NCBI GenBank assembly: GCA_964658135.1
Contig: CAZZXZ010000003.1
Coordinates: forward strand, 5,914-69,913
DNA from: an uncultured Acetobacteraceae bacterium
GTDB lineage: Bacteria > Pseudomonadota > Gammaproteobacteria > Steroidobacterales > Steroidobacteraceae
Direction: 5' to 3'
Length of the DNA stretch: 64,000 nt
This document shows, in pieces, positions 4,997-53,332 of this stretch. The position numbers and the translations under genes are program-made. Within the stretch, counting starts at the first letter, position 1. Each line of letters begins with the position of its first letter. Below the pieces are notes generated by a model. The model was given only the letters and a program-made list of their open reading frames with translations. It had not been told where the DNA came from and ran no database searches.

Positions 4997-6031
4997 TCAC
5001 ATACCGACGCGGCGCTGCGCGGCGGCGAACGACGGGTCGATCCGCGTCGCCACGAAGTCGGCAAACGGTGCAAGCTCGGGATAGGCGCGCGCTGTCGCGC
5101 GCACATAGTCGAGCACCCGCGGCAGATCTTTCAAGTAGCCGGGCTTGCCGTCCCGGTAGAACAGCCGCGCGAAGATGCCCAATACCTTGATGTGCCGCTG
5201 CAGTCCCATCAGATCGAACCAGCGGATGAACTGAGCCTCATCGTCGGGCAGTCCGAAGCCGGCCCGCAGCAGCTGGTCACGATACCCGAGCAACCAACCG
5301 CGGACGCGGGCGGCCGGCCAGACGATGTAACAGTCCTTCAGCAGCGACACGGCATCGTAGGTGACCGGGCCGCGCACCGCGTCTTGAAAATCGAGAATGC
5401 CGGGATTGGCGGCGTCGCAGACCAACAAATTGCGCGAATGGTAATCGCGATGCACGAAGGTCGTCGGCTGGGCAAGCGCGGCGTCCACCAACACGGCGAA
5501 CGAGCGCTTCAACACATCGCGCTCTGGCGCGCCCAGCGTCATGCCCAAATGCCTGCCGAGGAACCATTCGGGCAGCAGTTCCATCTCCCTCAGCAGCAGG
5601 GCCTCGTCGTACGGCGCCAGTCGCCGCGCCGCTTCGGCGTCCGTGGTCTGCAGGGTGACCAAGGCGGCCAGCGCATCCGTGTAAAGGCGCTCGACGTCGC
5701 GACCGGCAGTCAGTTCATCGAGATATTGGCGCGACCCCAAATCGGACAACAGCAAGAATCCTTGCGCTTCATCCCGGGCCAATACGATGGGGACGTTCAA
5801 ACCCATGCCGGCCAGGGTGCGCGCCACGCCTATGAACGGCGCCACGGGCTCCATGGCGGGCGGCGCGTCCATGACGATGTAGCTGTCCACGCCGCGCGTA
5901 ACGCGGAAATACCGGCGAAAACTCGCATCGGCGGATGCCGGTTCGATCCGGCAGCCGGCGAACCCGAGCGTCTCGACCACCCACCGCGTCAATGCCGTCA
6001 GGCGGGAATCGCTTGCATCCGCTACACCCAT
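4997..6031 (-). CDS. amgK: Aminoglycoside-phosphotransferase-fold kinase (anomeric MurNAc/GlcNAc kinase AmgK-like)
   Basis: APH-fold motifs FVHRDYHSRNLLV and ILDFQDAV. ATG 6031 avoids overlap with the divergent lptD. Confidence 0.7.
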   Translation of the reverse strand: MGVADASDSRLTALTRWVVETLGFAGCRIEPASADASFRRYFRVTRGVDSYIVMDAPPAMEPVAPFIGVARTLAGMGLNVPIVLARDEAQGFLLLSDLGSRQYLDELTAGRDVERLYTDALAALVTLQTTDAEAARRLAPYDEALLLREMELLPEWFLGRHLGMTLGAPERDVLKRSFAVLVDAALAQPTTFVHRDYHSRNLLVCDAANPGILDFQDAVRGPVTYDAVSLLKDCYIVWPAARVRGWLLGYRDQLLRAGFGLPDDEAQFIRWFDLMGLQRHIKVLGIFARLFYRDGKPGYLKDLPRVLDYVRATARAYPELAPFADFVATRIDPSFAAAQRRVGM

Positions 6032-6098
6032 GCTTGACCATTCGCCCACCGCAAATGCGGCGGCACCAGTATACCGATTAAGGCGATTCACTTTGCCC

Positions 6099-8516
6099 AT
6101 GGCATTTCACGTCAGAGCCGCATTGGCTGTTGTTTTTTGTTGCGCGGTGACTCTGGTCTGTCATGCGGGGGACATGTGTCCCGCACCACCGAAGCATTCC
6201 CCGGCACCCGCCTCGCCGATCGCCGCGTTCGATCATCTCATTCACATCGAGAGCGGGGGCGCGGTGGTCGACGATGCCGGCCACGCCGCGTTGAGCGATC
6301 GGGTGACGGTGACGCAGGACGGTCGGACCGTGGCCGCGGATTCGATGAATTACGACTACAACACCGGCAAACTCGACGTCAAGGGCGCGGTCGATTTCGA
6401 AGATCCCAAACTGCGCATCAAGAGCGACACCGGCACTTACGACACCGTGGGCGGCGCGGCTTTCGATCAGGCCTTCTTTCAAATCCTCGATCGCAACGGC
6501 CGCGGGTTCGCGCGCGAAATGGCGGTGCAGCCGGACGGCAAGGTCCAACTCGACCAAGTTCGCTATACCACCTGTCCGGTGGGCAACGGCGATTGGATGC
6601 TGCAAGCCTCGTCGATCGATCTGGATACGGCGCGTCAGGAAGGTATCGGCCGCCACGTCGTGCTGCGTTTCAAGGACGTACCCATTTTCTACACGCCGTA
6701 CATTTCGTTTCCCTTGGGCGATGACCGCAAAAGCGGCGTGTTGTTTCCCAGTTTCGGGCACTCGACCAGTAACGGCTACCAGCTCGAGGTCCCGTATTAC
6801 TTCAATTTGGCACCGAATTACGACCTCACGTTGACGCCGGGTGTCCTGTCCGCGCGCGGCGTGCAGCTGGGAGCCGAATTCCGCTTTCTGAACAGCAGTT
6901 CACACGGCACCGTCGAAGGCAACTTTCTACCGGACGACCGGCAAACACACTCGGATCGCGATTATTTTCACATCACGGACGTCGCCGATCTGACCCGCGG
7001 TCTGCGCTTCGACGCCGATATCGCTAGCGTCAGCGACATCAACTATTTCTCCGATTTCGCCGTGGGCTCGGAGGCGACCAGCGTGACGTATTTGGAACGG
7101 CGCGCCGAGGTGTTGTATTACGATGATAGCTGGCGTGTGCGCGGTCAGCTGCAGAATTACCAGACCATTGATTACGATGTCATGGACTACAGCCGGCCCT
7201 ACTCGCGCGTTCCGCGCATCGAGGCGCAGGGCTTGTTTCCGATCGCGAACACGCCGCTCGAATTCGCGTTGGACGGCGAAGCCACCAACTTTTTGCGCGA
7301 CGTCGGCCCGAGCGGGGTGCGTGTGATCGCGCAACCGGAGCTGCGTTTGTCGGAACGCGGTGCCGGCTACTTCTTCGAACCTGCCTTGGGCTACCATTTC
7401 ACCCAGTACGATCTGCATAACGCGGATATGAACGACCCGCTCGCGACCGCGCGCGAACCGAGCACACCCACCCGAGCGTTGCCTTACGGTCGGATTGACA
7501 CGGGTCTGGTGTTCGAACGCGATGCCGGTTCTTCGGGGCAGCGCAGCCAGACGCTCGAGCCACGCATGGTCTACAGCTACGTGCCCTACCGCAACCAGGA
7601 CGAACTGCCCGTGTTCGATACCGGATTGCCCGATCTGAATTTGACCGAACTGTTCCGCACCGATCGCTACGTGGGCGGCGATCGCATCGGCGATGCCAAT
7701 CAAATTGCGTTGGGGCTCACCACCCGGCTGTTCGATCAGGCCTCGGGAGCCCAGTATCTGAGCGCCACCATCGGACAGATCCGTTACTTGTCGATTCCAC
7801 GCGTGACCTTGCCCGAATGGTATTTGCAGACATTGACCGGCCAGGCACCGGCGGTCTTGCAGCCGCAGAATCCGTTTGGCGTTGCCGGGCAGATCGTCGC
7901 CGGCATGCCGCAGACCTATTCACTCGGTCTGCCCGGCCAATTCACCACGGTGCAATCGCGAAAAGCCCAAGTTCTCGTCCCCGGGCAGGTGCAGGAAACG
8001 TTCCCCGCCTCGGACATCGTCACGGAAATCTCGCTCGCCGCGTACAAACACCTCAACGTCAATCTGGACTATCAGGTCAACCCCTATACCTGGCAGACCG
8101 ACAAGACCGAGATCTTGCTGCAATACCACCCGGAACCTTCGATGGTGATGAATCTCGGCTACCGGTTCCAAGACGGCATACTCAAACAATACGATGGGTC
8201 TTTTGCATGGCCGATCGCCGGCAACTGGAACACCGTCGGGCGTTGGGTGTATTCCCTCCAGGACCATCAAACCATCGAGCAATTGGCTGGATTCGAGTAC
8301 AAGAGCTGTTGCTATCGCATCCAGATCGTACAACGTCGGTATCTCTCGAATCGCACCGCCACGGGCAACGGAGGACTCGACACCTCGATTGCTTTACAAT
8401 TGGAACTCACGGGCCTGAGTTCGGTCGGAAAGCCTGCGGATGCTTTCTTGCAGAAAGAGATTCAAGGCTATGTGGCCCACGACCCGGCCGGCCGGGATGG
8501 CGCACCGGCGCCGTAG
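6099..8516 (+). CDS. lptD: LPS-assembly outer-membrane protein LptD
   Basis: About 805 aa with a signal peptide from ATG 6099 (MAFHVRAALAVVFCCAVTLVCHA). It has an OstA-like N-domain and a long beta-barrel (YYFNLAPNYDLTLTP...). It lies upstream of surA-pdxA-rsmA. Confidence 0.92.
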   Translation: MAFHVRAALAVVFCCAVTLVCHAGDMCPAPPKHSPAPASPIAAFDHLIHIESGGAVVDDAGHAALSDRVTVTQDGRTVAADSMNYDYNTGKLDVKGAVDFEDPKLRIKSDTGTYDTVGGAAFDQAFFQILDRNGRGFAREMAVQPDGKVQLDQVRYTTCPVGNGDWMLQASSIDLDTARQEGIGRHVVLRFKDVPIFYTPYISFPLGDDRKSGVLFPSFGHSTSNGYQLEVPYYFNLAPNYDLTLTPGVLSARGVQLGAEFRFLNSSSHGTVEGNFLPDDRQTHSDRDYFHITDVADLTRGLRFDADIASVSDINYFSDFAVGSEATSVTYLERRAEVLYYDDSWRVRGQLQNYQTIDYDVMDYSRPYSRVPRIEAQGLFPIANTPLEFALDGEATNFLRDVGPSGVRVIAQPELRLSERGAGYFFEPALGYHFTQYDLHNADMNDPLATAREPSTPTRALPYGRIDTGLVFERDAGSSGQRSQTLEPRMVYSYVPYRNQDELPVFDTGLPDLNLTELFRTDRYVGGDRIGDANQIALGLTTRLFDQASGAQYLSATIGQIRYLSIPRVTLPEWYLQTLTGQAPAVLQPQNPFGVAGQIVAGMPQTYSLGLPGQFTTVQSRKAQVLVPGQVQETFPASDIVTEISLAAYKHLNVNLDYQVNPYTWQTDKTEILLQYHPEPSMVMNLGYRFQDGILKQYDGSFAWPIAGNWNTVGRWVYSLQDHQTIEQLAGFEYKSCCYRIQIVQRRYLSNRTATGNGGLDTSIALQLELTGLSSVGKPADAFLQKEIQGYVAHDPAGRDGAPAP

Positions 8517-21611: not shown

Positions 21612-23253
<1,642 letters not shown>

Positions 23254-23379
23254 TCGCAGCGCAATCCATGCAATCTCGTGCCGGTATTTTACCTTATAGA
23301 TCAAATACAATGCAGCGTTCCGTCCCGTCGCCGGTTTTGACCTGACAGGGGCGTCGCCGACCGACCAAGGAGACATCAC

Positions 23380-24684
23380 ATGATCCGTCGCATCAAAGCG
23401 GGTTTGAGTGCCGGCACGAAGGCCGACGACGCGGCCCAAGTCCGCAAGACCGTCGAAGACATTCTCGGGGCCATCGAAACACGCGGCAGCGCGGCGGTGC
23501 GCGACTATTCGGAGAGATTCGATGGCTGGTCGCCGCCGCGGTTCCGCCTTTCGAGCGACGAGATCGACGATTGCATTCGTAGTCTGCCCGTGAGCACGAT
23601 AGAGGACATCAAATTTGCGCAGACGCAGATACGGAACTTCGCGCTGGCGCAACGCGACTGCATCAAGGATCTCGAGATCGAGACGTTGCCGGGGGTCGTG
23701 CTCGGACATCGGAACATCCCCGTCAGCAGCGTGGGATGTTACGTCCCGGGCGGTCGCTATCCCATGGTCGCCTCCGCGCACATGAGTGTCGTCACCGCCA
23801 AGGCCGCCGGGGTGAAGCGCATCGTCGCCAGCGCACCGCCATTCGGCGGCCGACCGCATCCCGCCATCGTGACCGCCATGCATCTCGGCGGCGCCGATGA
23901 AATTTATGCGCTCGGCGGCGTGCAGGCCATCGGCGCCATGGCGTTGGGCACTGACGATGTCGCTGCGGTCGACGTCATCGTGGGTCCTGGTAACGCCTAC
24001 GTGGCGGAAGCAAAACGGCAACTTTTTGGGCGCGTCGGCATCGATCTGCTGGCTGGCCCCACCGAGACGCTGATCATCGCGGACTCGAGTTGCGATGCTG
24101 AGATGGCGGCAGTGGACTTGATCGGTCAAGCCGAGCATGGCCCCGGCAGCCCGGCCATACTGTTGACGGATTGCGCGCGGCTCGCGGCGGAGGTGCCGCA
24201 GGCCATCGACGCGCTGCTCGGGTGGCTGCCCACCGCCGACGTGGCGCGTATCGCTTGGCAAAACTGCGGCGAGATCATCCTGGTCGACACCCTGGAGGAA
24301 CTGGTACGGGAAGGCGACCGGATCGCATCGGAACACGTCCAAGTGCTCACCCGCGATCCGGATTATTTCTTGCGGCACCTGACGAATTTCGGCGCCTTGT
24401 TTTTAGGGCCGCGTACCAATGTCTCCTTCGGCGACAAGGTGATCGGCACCAACCATACGCTGCCGACCCTGCGCGCCGCACGCTACACGGGCGGTCTCTG
24501 GGTGGGAAAATTCCTCAAGACCTGTACGTATCAGCGCGTGACCACCGACGCGGCCAGCGCGTTGATCGGCGCATACGGGTCGCGGCTTTGCGAACTGGAA
24601 GGCTTCGCGGGTCACAAGGAACAGGCGGATTTGCGCGTCCGCCGATACGGCCTGGGTACGCCGGTCGGCGATGCGGTCGGTTAA
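23380..24684 (+). CDS. Histidinol-dehydrogenase-family oxidoreductase (HisD paralogue outside a his operon)
   Basis: [37 protein letters not shown] and GTNHTLPT motifs. AAGGAG lies before the ATG. Confidence 0.8.
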
Positions 24685-25423
24685 TCCCGTCGCCGTCGTG
24701 ACCGGGGGCACCGGCGGCATCGGCGCGGCAATCTGCAACCGACTCGCCGCGGCGGGCTTCGCCGTCGCGGTGGGGTATCACCGATCGGCAGACGCGGCGC
24801 AGACCCTGGCAGCGTCGCTGCCGGGGCCGGGCCACCTGGCCGTGAGCACCCCGGTGACCGACAGCGCGGCGCTGCGGGTCATGGCCGCGACGCTCACCGC
24901 CCAGCATGGCCGTTGCGACGTGCTTGTCAACTGTGCGGGAACCACCCGCTTCGTGGCGCACGGCGACCTCGAAGGACTGGACGATGCGTTGATCGATGAG
25001 ATCTTCGCCACCAACGTGCGCGGCAGCTTCGCCGCCGTGCGTGCGCTGTTGCCACTTCTGAAATCGAGCACCCAGTTGGGCGGTGGCGTCGTCGTCAACG
25101 TGTCGTCCATTGCCGCTCGTACCGCGATGGGCAGCAACGTCATGTACTGCGCGTCGAAGGCGGCGCTGGACAGCATGACCCAGTCGTTGGCACGCGCGCT
25201 GGCCCCGGCGGTGCGTGTGGTCTCGGTGGCGCCCGGGCTGGTCGGCACGGATTTCGTCAAATCGCTCGATCTGCGTTGGCGCGACGAACAAATGGCACGT
25301 ACTCCGCTCGGCCGTCTGGCGAGACCTGAAGAAGTGGCCACGGCGGTGGTGGCGCTCGTGCAAGACCTGACGTTCACCACAGGTTGCATCCTTCCGGTCG
25401 ACGGCGGCCGCCCGCTCAACTAA
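24671..25423 (+). CDS. Short-chain dehydrogenase/reductase
   Basis: [17 protein letters not shown] and YCASKAAL (YxxxK) motifs. Overlaps the HisD-like gene by 14 nt. Confidence 0.85.
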
Positions 25424-25442: not shown

Positions 25443-26177
25443 TTACATCTGTTTGAAGCGCTCCGTGAAGTTGCGGCTGAGCGGCAGCACGTCCGCATGG
25501 TTGCGCAGATGAATATGTGCGCGTCCCAGCAAGTCGCGTTCGATGCGCTCGACCGCCGATAAATTCACGATGATGCTGCGATGGACTTGTACGAACTGCT
25601 GTGGATTTAATTGATTGAGCAATTCCTTCAACGGAATACGTGCCAGGTGACGACCCGTGGCCGTGACCGCCTCGGTATATTTTTCGCTGGACCGGCAATA
25701 GACCAGCTCGTTGACGGCAATCAAGCGCGTGGTGTCACCCAGGCGCACGGTGAGCCAGGCGAGCGTCGCCGGCGCCGGCGGGCGTAGCAACAGCGCACTC
25801 AATGCAGCCGCGTCGAGCACGCCCGCCGGGGTGTGCCGCAGCCGGGCGACGCACTGCGCGAGGCGCGCATCGCTCACCGGTTTGAGGAGATAATCCACGG
25901 CTGCTGCGTCGAATGCGCTCACGGCATACTCGTCGTGCGCCGTCACGAAGACGATGCGGGTGGATCCCGCTAGGCGCGCCACTTGAACTCCGTCGAGCCC
26001 GGGCATACGAATGTCTAGAAACGCGAACGTCGGTCGCCGCTCGGCGATGACGGCGGCGGCCTCGAGACCGTTGCCCACCACGGCGACGATGTCGAGCTGC
26101 GGCCAGGCGCGCTGCAACCGCTCGCTGAGGTCCGCGGCGAGCCGTGGCTCATCGTCGGCGATCAGCGCCGTACTCAC
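25443..26177 (-). CDS. LytTR-family response regulator
   Basis: Receiver domain (ALIADDEP...FLDIRMPGLDG) plus a C-terminal LytTR DNA-binding domain (...CRSSEKYTEAVT...VHRSIIVN). The GTG start overlaps the kinase stop (GTGA). Confidence 0.88.
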   Translation of the reverse strand: MSTALIADDEPRLAADLSERLQRAWPQLDIVAVVGNGLEAAAVIAERRPTFAFLDIRMPGLDGVQVARLAGSTRIVFVTAHDEYAVSAFDAAAVDYLLKPVSDARLAQCVARLRHTPAGVLDAAALSALLLRPPAPATLAWLTVRLGDTTRLIAVNELVYCRSSEKYTEAVTATGRHLARIPLKELLNQLNPQQFVQVHRSIIVNLSAVERIERDLLGRAHIHLRNHADVLPLSRNFTERFKQM

Positions 26178-27241
26178 GAGGTGACACCGCGGCTGCCTGC
26201 GCTGAGCGGCTGCATGGGAATGCGCAGCTCGGCGATGACGCCCTGGCGCGGGTGAGGTTGCAAGCTCAGACGACCCGCAGCGCCATACAGACTGGCGAGA
26301 CGGGCGCGTACGTTCGACAAACCGACGCCTTCCGGCCGCGCGCCGCGCATGCCGACCCCCGTGTCGGTCACCCGCAACACCAGCATGTCGTCGACGCGCT
26401 GCGCCTCGACGCTGATGTCGCCGCCCTCGAGCGCCGGTTCTATGCCATGTTTGATGGCATTTTCCACCAAGGGTTGCAGCAGCAACGAGGGCAACTGCAG
26501 CTCACTCAGACTCGCGGAGATGGTCACGCGGCTGCGCAATCGGGGACCCAACCGGATCGAGGCGATGACGAGCAGGGATTCGATCAACTCTTGCTCGTCG
26601 GCGAGGCGATAGTGCGCCGTGCGGCTGCGGCGCAACGTGCCGCGCAGGTAACGGATCAGATGTTCCAGCATTTGCCTGCCGAGCGCCGGATCGTGTTCGA
26701 TGGCACTTTGGACATGAGCCAAGGTATTGAACAAGAAATGCGGTTCGATCTGCGCCTGCAATAGGGCAAGTTCCGCCACCGCCTGCGAGCGGCTGGCCTC
26801 GGCGCGTTGGCGGCTTTCGATTTCCAATTCCAGGCGCAGTTTCGCGGCCCGCTCCGCGTTGGTGATGAAAACGGTGGCCGACGCGGCGAACAGCAGCGAG
26901 ATGCTGATGGACTTCCATTGGTGCAAGGGATCCGCGGTGAAGGCGCCGACGAAATCGAAATAGCCGAACAAGACCGCCGCCTTGCCGCCCAAAAAAATGC
27001 CGGCCGGTACGGCAATGATCAGGGCCGGCAGGAGGCCGAGGCGGTCGTCGCTGAGCGTGCGTAGCGCTTCGAGCATTCCCCAGATGGAAAATCCGATGGC
27101 GTTGCTCACCAGCAACTCCCAATACCAGGCCGACGTCGAGTCCTGCATCAGCGTGAGCGCCGCCGCAATCATCGAGCTCACCACGCAGACCATGCAAGCC
27201 GTCGCCCAATGACGCGACCGAATCGGTGCTCGCCCCTTCAT
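26174..27241 (-). CDS. LytS/YehU/AlgZ-type sensor histidine kinase (membrane bundle, no periplasmic domain)
   Basis: From ATG 27241 there are 4-5 TM helices. These are followed by the His_kinase box (LQAQIEPHFLFNTL) and HATPase_c (LLLQPLVENAIKHG...DTGVGM). The 805-aa ORF extension is rejected. Confidence 0.85.
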   Translation of the reverse strand: MKGRAPIRSRHWATACMVCVVSSMIAAALTLMQDSTSAWYWELLVSNAIGFSIWGMLEALRTLSDDRLGLLPALIIAVPAGIFLGGKAAVLFGYFDFVGAFTADPLHQWKSISISLLFAASATVFITNAERAAKLRLELEIESRQRAEASRSQAVAELALLQAQIEPHFLFNTLAHVQSAIEHDPALGRQMLEHLIRYLRGTLRRSRTAHYRLADEQELIESLLVIASIRLGPRLRSRVTISASLSELQLPSLLLQPLVENAIKHGIEPALEGGDISVEAQRVDDMLVLRVTDTGVGMRGARPEGVGLSNVRARLASLYGAAGRLSLQPHPRQGVIAELRIPMQPLSAGSRGVTS

Positions 27242-28521
27242 AGATAGTAGTCCACCAACAACTGCCAGGTCTGGCGTTCGGTGTCGGCCCCGTAATCCGA
27301 CGTGGTGGTGCCGGCGGCATCCTGCCAGCGCAGCGCCAGATCGAAGGCGACCCAATGATGCCGCACCTCGACGTACGGCAATCGACTGTGATCGGCCAAG
27401 TCCAGCCGCCAAAACGCCGTCAGATCCCAATGCCTGATGAGGACATCCGCCCAGCTGGCATACAAAAAGAGGTTCGATCGCGTCGGCAAGTCCTGCTGTT
27501 GATCCAGGTACTCGCGGTATCGCCCGTAGTCCGCCGGATCGCCTCGTTGCACCCCCGACCAGCGCTGCGCACTTAGACCTGCGCCGTTGTATTCGTACTC
27601 GACGGTCAGCGAGAGTTTGTTGGTGGCCGTGTAAGTGAGGCCCGTGGCGGCACGCGCTCGCCAGGTGCTGGTTTGCGGCTGATCGAGCGCCTGGGCGTAC
27701 AGCGACGTCGCGCGGCCGCTCGAGACCTCGGCATACACGATCGTGGACTGACCGATCAAACCGGTCGTGTTCAAGCCGACTTGTGTTGGGTGGCCGTCGG
27801 CGCCGAACACCAACCATTGCGGCGTCCATTTCGCCGCCAACCGTTGACTCACCGACACGAGCCAACGGCCCGTCGCATTGGTGGCCCCCCAGTCCGGCGC
27901 GAGCGCCGCGGTGCTGGTGTGCTGCGTGAGCCGCGGCGCGTAAAGCACCGTCAGCGCACCGCTGTCCCACAAGACCTCGCCGCGCGCCATGACCGTGCCG
28001 AGCCGATTGTCGCGCAAACTGTTGGGATCGAGCGAGACCACCGAGCGTACCGCGTCGGCGCGAAAGTAATCGGTCGGGTTGTAGCCGAACGCCACGCCCT
28101 GACGCCCGTTGATCCGGCCGCCGTCCAACACTACGTTCGCATCCGGTTGCCAGCTCACGTAAGCCTCCTTCAGGGTACCGACCGCCGCGCTGGCAGCGGG
28201 GTTCTGCGACCACGCCGTGTCCAGCCGTTCGGCGAGCACCGCACGCAAGCCCGCCGCCAACGCCGCATCGTAGCGCGCATCCAGGGACACCCGCTCGGTC
28301 TCGCTCTCGCCGCCCGACGTCTGCGCCGCCGCCGCGTCGCCTTCGACCGTCAGGGAGCTGAACCCGCTCTTTGCCGCCGCATCGGCGGGCGCGCCCGGCA
28401 GCGACAATGCCGCCGCATCCGACTCGTCGTCCGAGCCGATTCGGGTCTGCGCGCCCGCCCGCCCGGCAACCGCCAGGCTGACCAACGATCCGAGCACGTA
28501 CAGTCTCATGCCGAGGCCCAT
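27238..28521 (-). CDS. Outer-membrane beta-barrel protein, family not recognised
   Basis: Signal peptide (MGLGMRLYVLGSLVSLAVAGRAGAQ). An acidic, Ala-rich N-terminal segment of about 70 aa follows. The rest shows alternating amphipathic strands rich in Y/W/G (TGLTYTATNKLSLTVEYEY..., TWQLLVDYYL end). The stop overlaps the kinase start (ATGA). Confidence 0.6.
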   Translation of the reverse strand: MGLGMRLYVLGSLVSLAVAGRAGAQTRIGSDDESDAAALSLPGAPADAAAKSGFSSLTVEGDAAAAQTSGGESETERVSLDARYDAALAAGLRAVLAERLDTAWSQNPAASAAVGTLKEAYVSWQPDANVVLDGGRINGRQGVAFGYNPTDYFRADAVRSVVSLDPNSLRDNRLGTVMARGEVLWDSGALTVLYAPRLTQHTSTAALAPDWGATNATGRWLVSVSQRLAAKWTPQWLVFGADGHPTQVGLNTTGLIGQSTIVYAEVSSGRATSLYAQALDQPQTSTWRARAATGLTYTATNKLSLTVEYEYNGAGLSAQRWSGVQRGDPADYGRYREYLDQQQDLPTRSNLFLYASWADVLIRHWDLTAFWRLDLADHSRLPYVEVRHHWVAFDLALRWQDAAGTTTSDYGADTERQTWQLLVDYYL

Positions 28522-28523
28522 CG

Positions 28524-29348
28524 CTACTCCGGTTTGAAGCGTGCGAGATAGTCACGCTGCAGCCAGCTGTCCGGAACGTCGCGCTGCGCATAGTTCGAAT
28601 AACGCATGATGGTGACCCACTGACGATCCAAGCCGTCGATGATCACCGTCTCGGTCGGACGGTCCGCACCGAGTTTGCGTTCGTAGTGCCGATAGTAAGC
28701 GGTTTTCAACAACTGCCCGCTGTCGGCATAAAACTTCGCTTTCACGGGATGCGCATTGACGGTATCGATCCAGATCTCCAACCAGTCGTAGGTCACGTCC
28801 TTGGCCGCCGCCTCGAGCTTGAGTCGATGACAATGGCGCAGCTGCTGTTCGCCATCCGCGACGTCCTCATCGTCCACCAAGCGCGCGTGATAATCCTTCG
28901 CCAAGTTGACCGTCACCACATCGCCGTTGGCCGCCTGACCCAGCAGGCGCTGGCGCGGAGATATGCGCACGCTGGCCTGGCTCGAGGGATCGTAGAACCA
29001 GAGGTCGTTGCCGCTCTTCAGCATCAGTTTGTTGGCATCGCGCGCCGGCGCGACGAAGCGGATCAAATTACGATACTGCCCGTTCGCAGGATCGGCTTTT
29101 GCGTAGATCTGTAGGCTGTCGATATCGGTTTGATGCCCGTCGTGATATTCGATCATCGTCGTCGTCAGCCCGAACGAACCGCTTGGATTTCGTACCGCGT
29201 CGCTCGCGGCGAGGATTTTCTGGGCATCGTCCTGGTCATCTTGGCGGGCATCGGGGCCCGCGGCGTGCGCACTGCCGAGCGCACCGACGGTCAGCAGGAT
29301 TGCGCACAGGCGCTGCCGTAACCGACGCTCGACCCATCGTTCACACAT
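28524..29348 (-). CDS. LolA-like outer-membrane lipoprotein-sorting protein (periplasmic)
   Basis: From ATG 29348, signal peptide ...LLTVGALGSAHA. The pattern DLWFYDPSSQASVRIS...GDVVTVNL...WLEIWID..HPVKAKFYADSGQLLK is typical of the LolA_like family. Confidence 0.72.
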   Translation of the reverse strand: MCERWVERRLRQRLCAILLTVGALGSAHAAGPDARQDDQDDAQKILAASDAVRNPSGSFGLTTTMIEYHDGHQTDIDSLQIYAKADPANGQYRNLIRFVAPARDANKLMLKSGNDLWFYDPSSQASVRISPRQRLLGQAANGDVVTVNLAKDYHARLVDDEDVADGEQQLRHCHRLKLEAAAKDVTYDWLEIWIDTVNAHPVKAKFYADSGQLLKTAYYRHYERKLGADRPTETVIIDGLDRQWVTIMRYSNYAQRDVPDSWLQRDYLARFKPE

Positions 29349-30744
29349 GACGCAATGCCTCCACCACCTGCAGATGCGCGGCACGGCCGGCGGGCCACCA
29401 TGCCGACAGCACCGCTACCAGTATCAGCGCAATCGAGGTGCCGACCAGCAAGGACGTCTCACCCCACACCCGCAAATGCAGCGGAATCGGATTGATCCGG
29501 CCCGGCGGAGTCCAGGTCGCGCCACTGTGATTGATGAGGGTCGCCAGGCCCAGAGCGGCAAGCACGCCCGCCAGCGCACCCAGCACACCCAGCAGCAACC
29601 CCTCGGCCATGAATAACGCACGGATTCCCGAACGGCGTAAGCCGATGGCTCGCAGCGTGCCGATTTCCACCGTGCGCTCCACCACCGCAGCGTTCATGGT
29701 ATTGCCCACGGTGAACAAGACGATGGCGCCGATCAACAACGCAATGAAACCGAAAATGGCATTGAACAATCCGATGGTCTGCCCATAGGAGGGATTCAGC
29801 GTGCGAAAATCGTACACCGCCAACGGGCGATCCCGCAGGCTGTGCGACAACAGGTACTCGAGCCGGGCCGCGGCAAGCGGGATCTGAGCCGTGTGATGGA
29901 GTTGCATGACGATGGCGGTCACCTCGGGCGCGGCCTTGCCGTACAGCAAGCGCTGTGCCTGGGACAAATGCAGTCCCACGTAGACATCGTCGTATTGTTT
30001 GACGCCCTGCGGCTCGGCTTTGATGACTTTGAGTCGCGCCACGTTGGGCGCACCGTTGGTGGTCGCGGCCAGCAGCTCGAGTTCGGGCGCGGCGTCGCGG
30101 CCCTGCGCGGCGCCGGCCGGCGGCGGTACGTCGGCCGCGGCCAATGCACCGACATCGCTTGGCAGCTCGGCACCCGTGGCGGGCGCCTTGGGCTGCGGCG
30201 CCGGACAGTCGGCCACCCGCAGCGCTCGGCACAATTGCAGCACGCGGGCGACGCCGGTGCCGATGACCGTCGACTCCGCGCTGCTGCCCGTCAACACCAA
30301 CCGCTCCGGCTTGTCCGGAAAACCGTAGTCGTTCCACGTGCGCATGGCGTTCTGATCCGCCACCACCACGCCGCTGGCCATGACGGTGCGCGAGGCACCT
30401 GCCGCAAAGTTACCGGCAATGCCGCCGAACTCCAGCGTCGGCGTAATCACCGTCACCAAGGGCGCCAGCACCGGATCGTCTTTGAGCATCGCGATGATAT
30501 GGGCGTAGTCGGCGATCCCATAGGCGGTCGGATCGCCGCTGCCGTAAAGAAGGTAGTCACGATTCTGCAGCTGCAGGTGCCCATCCCCGCGTACGTAGCC
30601 GTTTTGCAGGCCATACACGATGTTCTGCACGTAGCCGCCGAACAATAACGTGCAGACTGCGCCGAGCATCATGGCGAACAAGGTCGCAAGCGACCGGCGG
30701 CGGTTACGCATCAGGTTACGCAGGGCTAGACCCCAGGTAGTCAT
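29341..30744 (-). CDS. FtsX/MacB-type ABC transporter permease
   Basis: TM1, then a large periplasmic domain of about 250 aa with a Pro/Ala-rich linker, then three C-terminal TMs carrying the FtsX signature (ERTVEIGTLRAIGLRRSGI). The ATG overlaps the ATPase stop (ATGA). Confidence 0.85.
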   Translation of the reverse strand: MTTWGLALRNLMRNRRRSLATLFAMMLGAVCTLLFGGYVQNIVYGLQNGYVRGDGHLQLQNRDYLLYGSGDPTAYGIADYAHIIAMLKDDPVLAPLVTVITPTLEFGGIAGNFAAGASRTVMASGVVVADQNAMRTWNDYGFPDKPERLVLTGSSAESTVIGTGVARVLQLCRALRVADCPAPQPKAPATGAELPSDVGALAAADVPPPAGAAQGRDAAPELELLAATTNGAPNVARLKVIKAEPQGVKQYDDVYVGLHLSQAQRLLYGKAAPEVTAIVMQLHHTAQIPLAAARLEYLLSHSLRDRPLAVYDFRTLNPSYGQTIGLFNAIFGFIALLIGAIVLFTVGNTMNAAVVERTVEIGTLRAIGLRRSGIRALFMAEGLLLGVLGALAGVLAALGLATLINHSGATWTPPGRINPIPLHLRVWGETSLLVGTSIALILVAVLSAWWPAGRAAHLQVVEALRHV

Positions 30745-31445
30745 CGTGATTCTCCCGCGTCGGTCTTGCGCTGCACCGAGACGATGCGACCGTCGCGTAG
30801 GAACGCCGCGTCGTCGGCGGCGGCCAGCACCTTCGGATCGTGGGACGAGAACACGAACGACACGTGGAATTCGCGCTGCATGTTGCGCATCAACTCGATG
30901 ATGGCGGCGCCCGTCTGACTATCCAGGTTGGCGGTGGGCTCATCGGCCAACACCAATTGCGGCGCGGTGGCGAGAGCTCGCGCAACGGCGACTCGCTGCC
31001 GCTGCCCGCCCGACAGCTGGCCGGGACGATGCCGAGCATGCTGCGAGAGACCCACCGCCTCGAGCAGTTCCTCGACACGGCGTCGGCGCGCGGCCGCGGG
31101 AGTGCGCGTCAGGACCAAGGGATATTCGATATTTTCGTAGGCCGTCAACACCGGCATCAGATTGAAGTTTTGGAATATGAAGCCGATGTGCCGAAGACGG
31201 AAATCGGTACGCTCGTTGTCGCTGAGCGCGGCCACCGATCGACCGTTCAAGACGATGTCGCCCGCATCCGGCTCGTCGATGCAGCCGATCAAGTTCAGCA
31301 GCGTCGTCTTGCCGCTCCCGGATGCGCCCGACAGCACCGTGAAACACTGCGCGCGAATCTCCAGCGTGACATCGATCAGCGCCGGCACGTCGACCCGGTC
31401 GAGGCGGTAGGTTTTCGACACCCGGGTAATGGTCGCCACATTCAT
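30741..31445 (-). CDS. ABC transporter ATP-binding protein (LolD/MacB class)
   Basis: Walker [10 protein letters not shown], signature LSGGQRQR, Walker B LVLADEPT. Confidence 0.92.
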
Positions 31446-31550
31446 GAAGAGTCCTCATCGGTACCAACCTGAGGGTACTCTAGAGGCGATCGCACGCACG
31501 CGCTCGGACATGCGACGAAAGGTCGTGGGGCCGGATGAAGCGTATTGGTA

Positions 31551-52878: not shown

Positions 52879-53159
52879 GGCTGCTCCTTGAGAGGACGTA
52901 ATGGGCCGGCGCGCGACTCAAGCGCGCTGGACGAAGCGCAGAGACACCGAGTTCATGCGGTACCGCAAGCCGGTGGGCCGCGGAAAGCTCGGCCAACCGG
53001 TACCGATTCGAACTTGCTCTGCGCGTCGTACAACGCGGTGTCGCAACGCGCAAGTATAGATACCATCGGCATGACTGGTCGCCTACTCGCCCGAAAATGA
53101 CGCCTCGGTGCCCTCTTGGCGCGCCACTTTCATATCCACGGTGGCTGAGGTACTCTGCC

Positions 53160-53275
53160 GATCTCTTTGGGGAGTAGCCGACCCTCGGACACGAGGGGTG
53201 GTGCATCAACATACTTGGCCTTTCGGCCATGGTGCACCGAGCCGCGAGGCCTGGCGAGACCATTGACTAGATTCC
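53160..53275 (+). promoter_or_regulatory. yybP-ykoY (Mn2+-sensing) riboswitch-like leader
   Basis: Conserved blocks GGGGAGUAGC (53169-53178), AACAUAC and GGCGAGACC (ends 53261). Nested helices: CCCUCG-GACA-CGAGGG and GGUGCA...GGCC-UUUC-GGCC...UGCACC. It lies 60-70 nt upstream of a cation-transporter gene. Recognised from memory of the family consensus, not scored with a covariance model. Confidence 0.62.
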
Positions 53276-53332
53276 TATCCGGGCTGGACGGGAATCTCGT
53301 CAGTGGCTCGAGTTCAGCCCCGAGGATTCTTC

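Follow-up and report, generated by a model that had tools for sequence, protein, structure and literature searches.

Comparison with described systems

Hydrophobic cargo is known to pass from the inner to the outer membrane by soluble carriers (Lol, Mla), by bridges (Lpt, AsmA/Tam-like) or through tripartite ducts. The locus described here merges parts of two of these route types, combining a MacB/Lol-type motor and a LolA-type carrier with a channel-like barrel. It occupies positions 25443 to 31445, on the minus strand, of a 64,000-nucleotide stretch of contig CAZZXZ010000003.1 (hereafter the window) from an uncultured bacterium that GTDB places in the Steroidobacteraceae, and it consists of six genes. 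The first four encode the ATPase and the permease of an ATP-binding cassette (ABC) transporter, a LolA-fold periplasmic protein and an outer-membrane barrel; they recur together in other genomes and are called the cassette below. The last two encode a two-component system. That the core is a self-contained four-protein cassette for export across the envelope, to which the window's clade adds AlgZ/AlgR-like control, is in our judgment an even call. The genes are as follows, in the order of transcription:

30741 to 31445, minus strand, ABC ATPase gene (234 amino acids), with the ribosome-binding site GAGGA at 31452-31456
29341 to 30744, minus strand, type VII ABC permease gene (467 amino acids)
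28524 to 29348, minus strand, gene for a periplasmic LolA-fold protein (274 amino acids)
27238 to 28521, minus strand, outer-membrane beta-barrel gene (427 amino acids)
26174 to 27241, minus strand, LytS/AlgZ-type histidine kinase gene (355 amino acids)
25443 to 26177, minus strand, LytTR-family response regulator gene (244 amino acids)

In working principle, a motor plus a soluble carrier, the cassette comes closest to the LolCDE-LolA-LolB pathway, which it resembles in having a type VII ABC transporter with a separate ATPase, a permease closest to LolE/LolC and a soluble LolA-fold carrier, and in lacking an adaptor and TolC. Unlike that pathway, it contains one permease gene rather than a LolC and LolE pair, its ATPase and permease fail the LolD and LolCE cutoffs, and its carrier belongs to PF17131. 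The partner of this carrier is a predicted 18-strand barrel, whereas LolB is a lipoprotein. The cassette also differs in being patchily distributed, present in two copies in at least one genome and predicted to be inducible. With MacAB-TolC and its kin (PvdRT-OpmQ, DevBCA-TolC, Aat), the cassette shares a motor of MacB-type fold and, in one lineage (L089-L092), a coupling to nonribosomal peptide synthetase (NRPS) genes. In this respect the NRPS-linked cassette is similar to the lipopeptide clusters of Pseudomonas, which carry macAB-like genes. In place of the adaptor and continuous conduit of these pumps, however, the cassette has a diffusible carrier and a porin-like barrel. MacB-type pumps export amphiphilic antibiotics, peptides and siderophores (PMC5985334).

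The only comparable combination found in the literature is the BBJ23-BBJ29 cluster of Borrelia, described in 2026 by computation only, which brings together a MacB-like ABC protein, an ATPase, a LolA-like protein and an outer-membrane barrel (PMC13078400). The Borrelia barrel is Omp85/BamA-like and has no sequence-family identity with that of the window, and the cluster, which is plasmid borne in a spirochaete host, includes additional chaperone-like proteins but no two-component system. The Mla system (MlaFEDB-MlaC-MlaA/OmpC) follows the same three-compartment logic of an ABC transporter, a soluble lipid carrier and a barrel partner, but its protein families and motor mechanism differ, and none of the six window proteins gave an Mla-type Pfam match.

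The barrel and the two-component system have relatives of their own. As modelled with AlphaFold2, the barrel comes nearest to the 18-stranded monomeric fold of AlgE and of the OprD/Occ channels, at template modeling (TM) scores of only 0.45-0.55. It differs from them in sequence family and in its partners, which are an ABC transporter and a LolA-like protein rather than AlgK/AlgX, and alginate genes are absent. The two-component system resembles AlgZ(FimS)/AlgR of Pseudomonas aeruginosa in pairing a LytS-type kinase of four transmembrane helices with a LytTR regulator, and a half-site in the window matches the AlgR box CCGTTCGTC; moreover, the related cassette L026 adjoins a kinase gene, a LytTR gene, hemC, hemX and hemY. 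In contrast to these, the window pair does not lie beside hemC, its regulator being a paralogue of the hemC-linked regulator of L026, and the window kinase keeps a HATPase_c domain, whereas AlgZ is reported without ATP-binding motifs (PMC4064291).

The original prediction knew of no characterised system with this composition. This holds for characterised members, none of which was found in the literature on TP0789, on LolA-like proteins with FtsX or MacB, or on LytTR with FtsX, but the Borrelia cluster precedes it as a concept (PMC13078400). Other operons that contain PF17131 have different architectures, such as the MMPL type of Bacteroidota (PMC10434189) and BCAL3149 of B. cenocepacia. The parts and the logic of the cassette are thus familiar, while its composition, its barrel family and its AlgR-type control are undescribed.

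Conservation and operon organization

The distribution of the cassette was followed by scanning one genome per GTDB species with a profile of the barrel, which retrieved 80 genome loci; the six window proteins were compared with the loci by tblastn, and 80 further metagenome loci were seeded from distant members, giving about 160 in total. The genes for the ATPase, permease, LolA-like protein and barrel keep the same order on one strand in every genome locus whose contig reaches far enough. The block is also present in nearly all of the metagenome loci, five or six loci deviating overall, and it is kept down to about 33% barrel identity (relatives at 33-34%). The loci belong mostly to Burkholderiales and otherwise to Steroidobacteraceae, Sulfurifustaceae and Acidiferrobacterales. 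The cassette is widespread, in hundreds of environmental Betaproteobacteria and Gammaproteobacteria. Closest to the window are Steroidobacteraceae loci with 53-58% barrel identity, and its nearest relatives are metagenome-assembled genomes (MAGs) of this family. Two MAGs (L011 and L015) are labelled Enterobacteriaceae and Clostridia; their cassette proteins are typical of the betaproteobacterial group, and the contigs are probably misbinned or mislabelled.

The kinase and regulator genes follow the barrel gene only in the window's clade (L003, L006-L008, L139, L153, L160, L166 and L168). The conserved unit is therefore the block of four, to which this lineage has added the two-component system. 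The six-gene unit of the original prediction thus holds as far as coupling in the window is concerned, but the unit under selection is the block of four. For this block the co-occurrence is above chance, since its gene order recurs in the 80 genome and 80 metagenome loci.

Open reading frames in the 6-kb flanks of the 80 genome loci were compared all against all by BLASTP and clustered. Only regulators and genus-level synteny emerged in these flanks, with no recurrent cargo or biosynthetic family. A MacA/HlyD adaptor or TolC duct was found neither in the operon nor in its immediate flanks, and neither recurs in the flanks of the genome loci, which confirms the earlier statement that the operon has no such component and no cargo gene. 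The regulators that recur beside the cassette are LytS/LytTR pairs, MerR-TipAS proteins and AraC-type proteins; elsewhere there are none. In Undibacterium-type loci (L030, L040, L043, L050, L065 and L070), a gene for a MerR protein with a TipAS antibiotic-recognition domain directly precedes the cassette and shares its strand, at about 5800-6880 in the 21-kb loci, and these loci have no AlgR-type boxes.

Two settings are more specific. In L089-L092, a metagenomic lineage whose barrel is about 34% identical to that of the window, the last part of a small NRPS cluster overlaps with the cassette; the order in L090 (728-12650) is metal-dependent hydrolase, NRPS of condensation, adenylation and thiolation domains (C-A-T, 1418 amino acids), thioesterase, ATP-grasp protein, cassette and major facilitator superfamily transporter. 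This lineage offers a possible handle on the class of cargo, and the link is not generalised because it is confined to this lineage. In L026 (62-6597), genes for a LytS-type kinase without a HATPase_c match and a LytTR regulator are followed by hemC, an unassigned open reading frame, hemX and hemY, an order that we take to be the algZR-hemCDXY arrangement of Pseudomonas; the cassette begins directly downstream, at about 6800. L017 and L049 share the hem-linked setting, which is seen in a few Betaproteobacteria, and in L049 a LytTR gene is upstream of the hemY that directly precedes the cassette. Adjacency to hemY was considered as a hint of porphyrin export, MacAB being reported to export protoporphyrin and HrtB being among the fold matches of the permease. 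This idea was not adopted, as the adjacency concerns about four loci only and is better explained by the nearness of the kinase and LytTR genes. The cassette is present twice in Noviherbaspirillum sp. ST9, as L067 and L077 on separate scaffolds, and only L077 has AlgR-type tandem boxes at the usual position.

In the window, the list of open reading frames contains all six minus-strand genes at the coordinates originally given, and the five junctions read directly from the sequence agree with the earlier description. The ATPase and permease genes overlap by ATGA (30741-30744), the permease and LolA-like genes by the 8 nucleotides ATGTGTGA (29341-29348), the barrel and kinase genes by ATGA (27238-27241), and the kinase and regulator genes by GTGA (26174-26177), while the LolA-like and barrel genes are separated by a 2-nucleotide spacer (TAG-CG-ATG, 28522-28523). 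The 274-residue start of the LolA-like protein, which creates the 8-nucleotide overlap, is also that of the deposited gene call. For the kinase, the longer start within the ATGA overlap is favoured over an alternative at Met17, because homologues align from residue 8-12 of the query, upstream of Met17, and because the Joint Genome Institute (JGI) call for the kinase of L003 likewise overlaps the barrel stop codon by 4 nucleotides. The complete route, the stoichiometric co-expression and the kinase that monitors the machine, all part of the original prediction, are inferences.

The ABC motor and the LolA-fold carrier

Pfam scans matched the families expected for five of the six proteins and, as anticipated, none for the 427-residue protein. 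The ATPase gave a match to ABC_tran (E value of 5e-32), as expected of an ABC ATPase with Walker and signature motifs. Its best NCBIfam models are LolD, DevA, MacB and FtsE, which places it in the class of LolD/DevA/MacB nucleotide-binding domains. It scores 210.5 bits against the LolD model, where the cutoff is 307.75, and the permease scores 65.8 bits against lolCE, where the cutoff is 362.45. Both scores fall far short of the equivalog cutoffs, so that by sequence family the two proteins are not LolCDE orthologues, which speaks against the possibility that they are simply the LolCDE of this genome.

The permease contains an FtsX domain (E value of 7.8e-15, residues 333-459). For the MacB_PCD domain, which had also been predicted, the window protein stays below threshold; only relatives show it, as a faint precomputed match. 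Hydropathy places a first transmembrane helix at residues 19-43 or so, a periplasmic domain of about 285 residues at approximately 44-328, and helices 2 to 4 at 329-456. An AlphaFold2 model built from 37 homologues, with a moderate predicted local distance difference test (pLDDT) score of 70, agrees with this layout in secondary structure. Its best Foldseek match is LolE in lipoprotein-bound LolCDE (E value of 3e-18, TM scores of 0.61/0.68), followed in order by MacB, LolC, YtrF, HrtB and YbbP, and it also matches the isolated periplasmic domains 5udf and 3ftj (target-normalised TM score of about 0.6). The model and these matches support the claimed LolE/MacB-like permease fold, and by family, transmembrane layout and modelled Porter (plus Sabre) fold the ATPase-permease pair classifies as a type VII (MacB/FtsX) transporter. 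Since there is a single permease gene, the transporter is presumably a homodimer. Type VII ABC transporters act in the periplasm and do not transport substrate across the inner membrane (PMC5985334).

Two cysteines of the permease, C172 and C180, are invariant. Just after them lies a low-complexity insert rich in alanine and proline (approximately residues 183-217, pLDDT below 50), which may be a flexible loop framed by a disulfide. This region of the periplasmic domain, residues 172-220 or so, corresponds to approximately 30085-30231 on the minus strand of the window.

The third protein belongs to PF17131 (LolA_like), with an E value of 1.2e-36 and 126.6 bits against a cutoff of 30, over positions 3-184 of the 184 in the model; in the Pfam scan no other LolA family was reported for it. 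Precomputed annotations name this family TP_0789-like, after TP0789, which is known only as a structural homologue of LolA. The closest solved structure is 3BUU (E value of 3e-38), which is NE2245 of N. europaea, a structural genomics entry annotated as "LolA superfamily". The protein has a signal peptide of the signal peptidase I type ending in ...AHA/AG and has no lipobox, as claimed for a carrier that is not a lipoprotein. A scan of the N termini of its relatives gave no lipobox-like match in 117 of 140. The other 23 matches are mostly spurious, most lying upstream of the likely start codon, with a plausible lipobox in L022, L023 and L039.

The outer-membrane barrel

No Pfam or NCBIfam model matched the 427-residue protein, and even at E values up to 1 the protein and 41 relatives gave only scattered subthreshold Pfam matches. 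It has at least 533 relatives, all annotated as hypothetical and without a Pfam domain, and the relatives form 618 clusters at 50% identity. The protein has a signal peptide, and its AlphaFold2 model (pLDDT of 74, predicted TM score of 0.73) is an 18-stranded barrel with long loops and short turns (2-8 residues) in alternation, the usual pattern of outer-membrane proteins. The beta-barrel of the original prediction was thus reproduced, with no sign of a non-barrel fold. The best Foldseek match is AlgE (E value of 4e-10, TM scores of 0.52-0.55, root mean square deviation of 7-9 Å), and the OprD/Occ channels match at fold level only (TM scores of 0.45-0.55); E values over the two groups are approximately 1e-9 to 1e-10. 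These structural matches are to porin-like barrels and not to TolC. Pfam gave no match to Alginate export (AlgE) or to the OprD family, and no alg genes are nearby. On the strength of the model, the protein defines a new outer-membrane barrel family that lacks a database model.

Residues 133-175, which connect strands 5 and 6, hold about one-third of the invariant columns of the barrel and include several arginines and the motif GYNPTD. Under the usual topology rule they would form extracellular loop 3, which in porins and OprD is the constriction loop. The long loop and the conserved arginines of the model suggest a selective, possibly anion-preferring pore. A second conserved motif, DDxAALxLxG, is found at about residues 33-43, in a periplasmic N-terminal extension that is otherwise disordered, and it is a speculative candidate for a peptide on which the carrier docks. 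Longer relatives (P0224, P0127, P0124 and P0241) were examined as possible domain fusions and rejected, as their extensions contain no Pfam domain and probably reflect miscalled starts. The barrel gene of L141 (9923-11185), which stands alone, adjoins genes for a phosphopantetheinyl transferase, a GAF protein and a sigma-54 two-component system.

The two-component system and a predicted operator

The kinase matches His_kinase (PF06580, E value of 3.5e-18) and HATPase_c (PF02518, E value of 8.5e-11), and the regulator matches Response_reg (E value of 1.5e-17) and LytTR (E value of 5.1e-22), all four domains being above gathering thresholds. The best NCBIfam model of the regulator is BtsR, at 131 bits, below the cutoff of 246. 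About four transmembrane helices are found in the first 130 residues of the kinase, three of which pass the hydropathy threshold and the fourth of which (residues 39-58) was assigned by eye, and no loop is longer than about 20 amino acids. The N-terminal 150 residues gave no Pfam match, and no multihelix sensor domain of the LytS type was recognised there. The kinase therefore consists of a membrane bundle and the kinase core only, as first described, and with this bundle as its sole input it can only receive its signal in or at the membrane. AlgZ likewise has four transmembrane helices in its first 150 amino acids (PMC4064291). At only about 31% identity to its hemC-linked counterpart in L026, the window regulator is a paralogue, not an AlgR orthologue; the algZ-algR-hemC synteny is absent from the window, where no hem gene adjoins the pair.

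Upstream regions of the ATPase gene were compared among the loci that carry the two-component system. The window contains two tandem 10-nucleotide direct repeats, GCNNTTCGTC, with a period of 20 nucleotides, placed about 97-98 nucleotides upstream of the ATG of the ATPase gene. The elements of this region are the following:

31534 to 31543, minus strand, direct repeat 1, ACGCTTCATC, predicted LytTR/AlgR-type operator
31514 to 31523, minus strand, direct repeat 2, ACCTTTCGTC, agreeing with 8 of 9 positions of the P. aeruginosa AlgR box CCGTTCGTC
31477 to 31482, minus strand, -10-like hexamer TAGAGT, 31 nucleotides downstream of repeat 2, with no match to a -35 element

Tandem repeats approximately 20-21 nucleotides apart, just upstream of the -35 element, are the classic layout of LytTR operators (AgrA- and ComE-type sites). 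The half-site of L006 is exactly CCGTTCGTC, from which repeat 2 of the window departs at one position; this consensus has been defined by footprinting and by ChIP-seq (PMC4064291, PMC4787818). Counted by hand, the 31-nucleotide spacing from repeat to hexamer is the same in L006 (TAGATT) and L007 (TACAGT), and Noviherbaspirillum loci have TATATT or TATAGT at about the same offset, several of them with a third repeat upstream. A sigma-70 consensus scan revealed no full promoter upstream of the ATPase gene, such scans, like those for terminators, being uninformative in this high-GC region; lack of a full promoter may be expected where transcription depends on an activator.

At a fixed matrix threshold, the repeat pair is present in 26 of 111 nonredundant loci, where approximately 0.2 would be expected by chance; the background elsewhere in the same loci is 0.0019 per 250 nucleotides. 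In these 26 loci the first repeat lies 91-116 nucleotides before the start codon, with a mode of 94-98. Of the loci that adjoin a two-component system, seven could be scored and all carry the pair, three of them having been outside the training of the matrix; 19 loci carry the pair without such a neighbour. The extended half-site TT[CT][GA]TCGCA occurs in 31 of the 111 upstream regions, clustered 70-80 nucleotides before the start, against a background of 0.005 per 250 nucleotides. The boxes at 31514-31543 are thus a positionally conserved, predicted operator for an AlgR-like regulator, and the conservation of the tandem repeats strengthens the link between LytTR and the cassette. Judged from these boxes, an AlgR-like regulator would activate the cassette in roughly one-third of the lineages. 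With regulator and kinase captured into the operon, control in the window's clade would therefore be positive autoregulation. Outside Pseudomonas, the region offers a concrete candidate for a promoter targeted by an AlgR-like LytTR regulator.

Proposed mechanism and alternative readings

In the mechanism that we propose, a homodimeric type VII ABC transporter of the MacB/LolCDE fold would convert ATP hydrolysis in the cytoplasm into work in the periplasm, by the mechanotransmission established for this superfamily. On the outer face of the inner membrane, the transporter would extract or capture its hydrophobic or amphiphilic cargo and, by analogy with the transfer from LolCDE to LolA, pass it to the soluble LolA-fold carrier. 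The carrier would bring it to or through the dedicated 18-stranded, porin-like barrel, which would serve as a selective exit channel or as an acceptor. Judging from the model and from OprD and AlgE, the specificity constriction is probably the highly conserved, long arginine-rich loop that joins strands 5 and 6. In the window's clade, the cassette would have acquired an AlgZ/AlgR-like two-component system as its fifth and sixth genes, whose kinase would sense within or at the membrane and whose regulator would activate the operon, and hence itself, through the two tandem AlgR-type boxes, centred approximately 45-70 nucleotides upstream of the presumed transcription start.

The cargo may be an anionic lipid-like or lipopeptide-like small molecule, which we tentatively rank above a lipoprotein. 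Hints in favour of a small amphiphile are the absence of a conserved lipoprotein gene, the channel-like barrel, the NRPS-linked lineage, the TipAS regulator and the two copies in one genome. Extra copies are expected of an efflux-like module rather than of a housekeeping route, and the two cassettes of ST9 therefore point to the former. A role in efflux or resistance is also suggested by the MerR-TipAS neighbours. More speculatively, the conserved arginine-rich loop could correspond to an anionic head group of the cargo. Taken in full, the proposal is of an unrecognised and widespread architecture in which a type VII motor, a LolA-fold shuttle and a new 18-strand barrel export such a molecule to the surface without adaptor, TolC or LolB, under an AlgR-type (LytTR) regulon in about one-third of the lineages; in this extended form we consider it somewhat more likely to fail than to stand. 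The cassette defines a family of outer-membrane proteins without a database model. Identification of its cargo could uncover a novel surface lipid, biosurfactant or means of resistance, and could help to explain the docking of LolA-fold carriers onto barrels.

Several points weigh against this proposal. The handover from permease to carrier to barrel is drawn by analogy, and the direction of transport would follow from the superfamily alone. The NRPS link is restricted to one lineage. The barrel model is of medium confidence only (pLDDT of 74), and its most conserved loop is its least confident part, with pLDDT of approximately 41-52 over residues 141-170, for which reason the placement of residues 133-175 in the lumen stays an inference. 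The short periplasmic turns of the modelled barrel offer no evident docking site for the carrier, for which the N-terminal motif is a candidate. At the level of gene content, L124, L127 and L128 have the ATPase, LolA-like and barrel genes without a permease gene adjoining that of the ATPase, and in L141, L136 and L110 the barrel gene is an orphan. With regard to control, about two-thirds of the loci are without AlgR-type boxes, and the operator matrix, built from loci that adjoin a two-component system, is partly circular for four of them and for the window.

It is rather unlikely that the cassette serves as a Lol-like side route reserved for one or a few lipoproteins, in which the ABC transporter would extract a specific acylated protein, the LolA-like protein would act as its chaperone and the barrel would be the outer-membrane acceptor or surface translocon in place of LolB. 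The best structural matches of the permease are indeed LolE chains of lipoprotein-bound LolCDE, the carrier has the LolA fold, the analogous Borrelia cluster has been read in this way (PMC13078400), and one distant locus adjoins lgt, on the opposite strand. However, in about 160 loci the cassette and its surroundings contain no conserved lipoprotein gene, and the NCBIfam LolCE and LolD equivalog cutoffs are widely missed. The barrel resembles substrate channels such as AlgE and OprD rather than LolB, which is a LolA-fold lipoprotein (PMC13078400), or an Omp85-type insertase, and the neighbouring NRPS cluster, MerR-TipAS and AraC proteins point to small molecules.

Homeostasis of a bulk lipid (phospholipid, ornithine lipid or similar), shuttled between the membranes in either direction as by Mla, is unlikely. 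An inner-membrane ABC transporter, periplasmic carrier and barrel parallel MlaFEDB-MlaC-MlaA/OmpC, a stand-alone cassette without biosynthetic neighbours suits a ubiquitous component of the cell, and a kinase that senses only within the membrane would fit as well. The patchy distribution, the two copies in at least one genome and the variable contexts are nevertheless atypical of a housekeeping lipid route, retrograde lipid import is not known for type VII ABC transporters (PMC5985334), and the Pfam scan of the six proteins found no MCE or MlaC family match.

Activation of the operon by its own regulator, as proposed here, competes with the doubtful view that the two-component system is merely adjacent through inherited synteny of the clade and that the repeats are the footprint of an unrelated promoter element. 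The pair follows the barrel in one clade only, the boxes are lacking in about two-thirds of the loci, and the matrix was trained on that clade. Nevertheless, the barrel stop and kinase start share an ATGA overlap, with the same 4-nucleotide overlap in the JGI calls of L003, and the element matches the AlgR box. Its internal tandem repeat has the 20- to 21-nucleotide period typical of LytTR operators. Moreover, 19 loci from other families, none with an adjacent two-component system, have the boxes at a fixed distance, and L026 and L049 have a LytTR gene upstream of the hemY that directly precedes the cassette.

Uptake, in which the barrel would admit a hydrophobic or anionic nutrient, the LolA-like protein would ferry it and the ABC transporter would complete import or signal its presence, is very improbable: the nearest barrel folds include OprD/Occ uptake channels and some Bacteroidota PF17131 operons are induced by iron or haem limitation (PMC10434189), but those operons use MMPL partners in a different architecture, the type VII fold has no transmembrane pathway for substrate (PMC5985334), and features of importers with solute-binding proteins are absent.

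Neighbouring features of the window

The genes downstream of the operon (21612-25423) look unrelated to the cassette. A short-chain dehydrogenase gene at 24671-25423, on the plus strand, converges on the regulator gene across a gap of 19 nucleotides in which no terminator is predicted. It is preceded by a gene of the histidinol dehydrogenase family at 23380-24684, beyond which lie open reading frames that resemble pantothenate synthesis genes, an assignment made by eye only. This region also contains many long, spurious antisense open reading frames, owing to its high GC content. Farther away, in a window that has no tRNA genes, the sole Rfam match is a manganese (yybP-ykoY) riboswitch at 53157-53327 on the plus strand, scoring 64 bits against a gathering score of 45.

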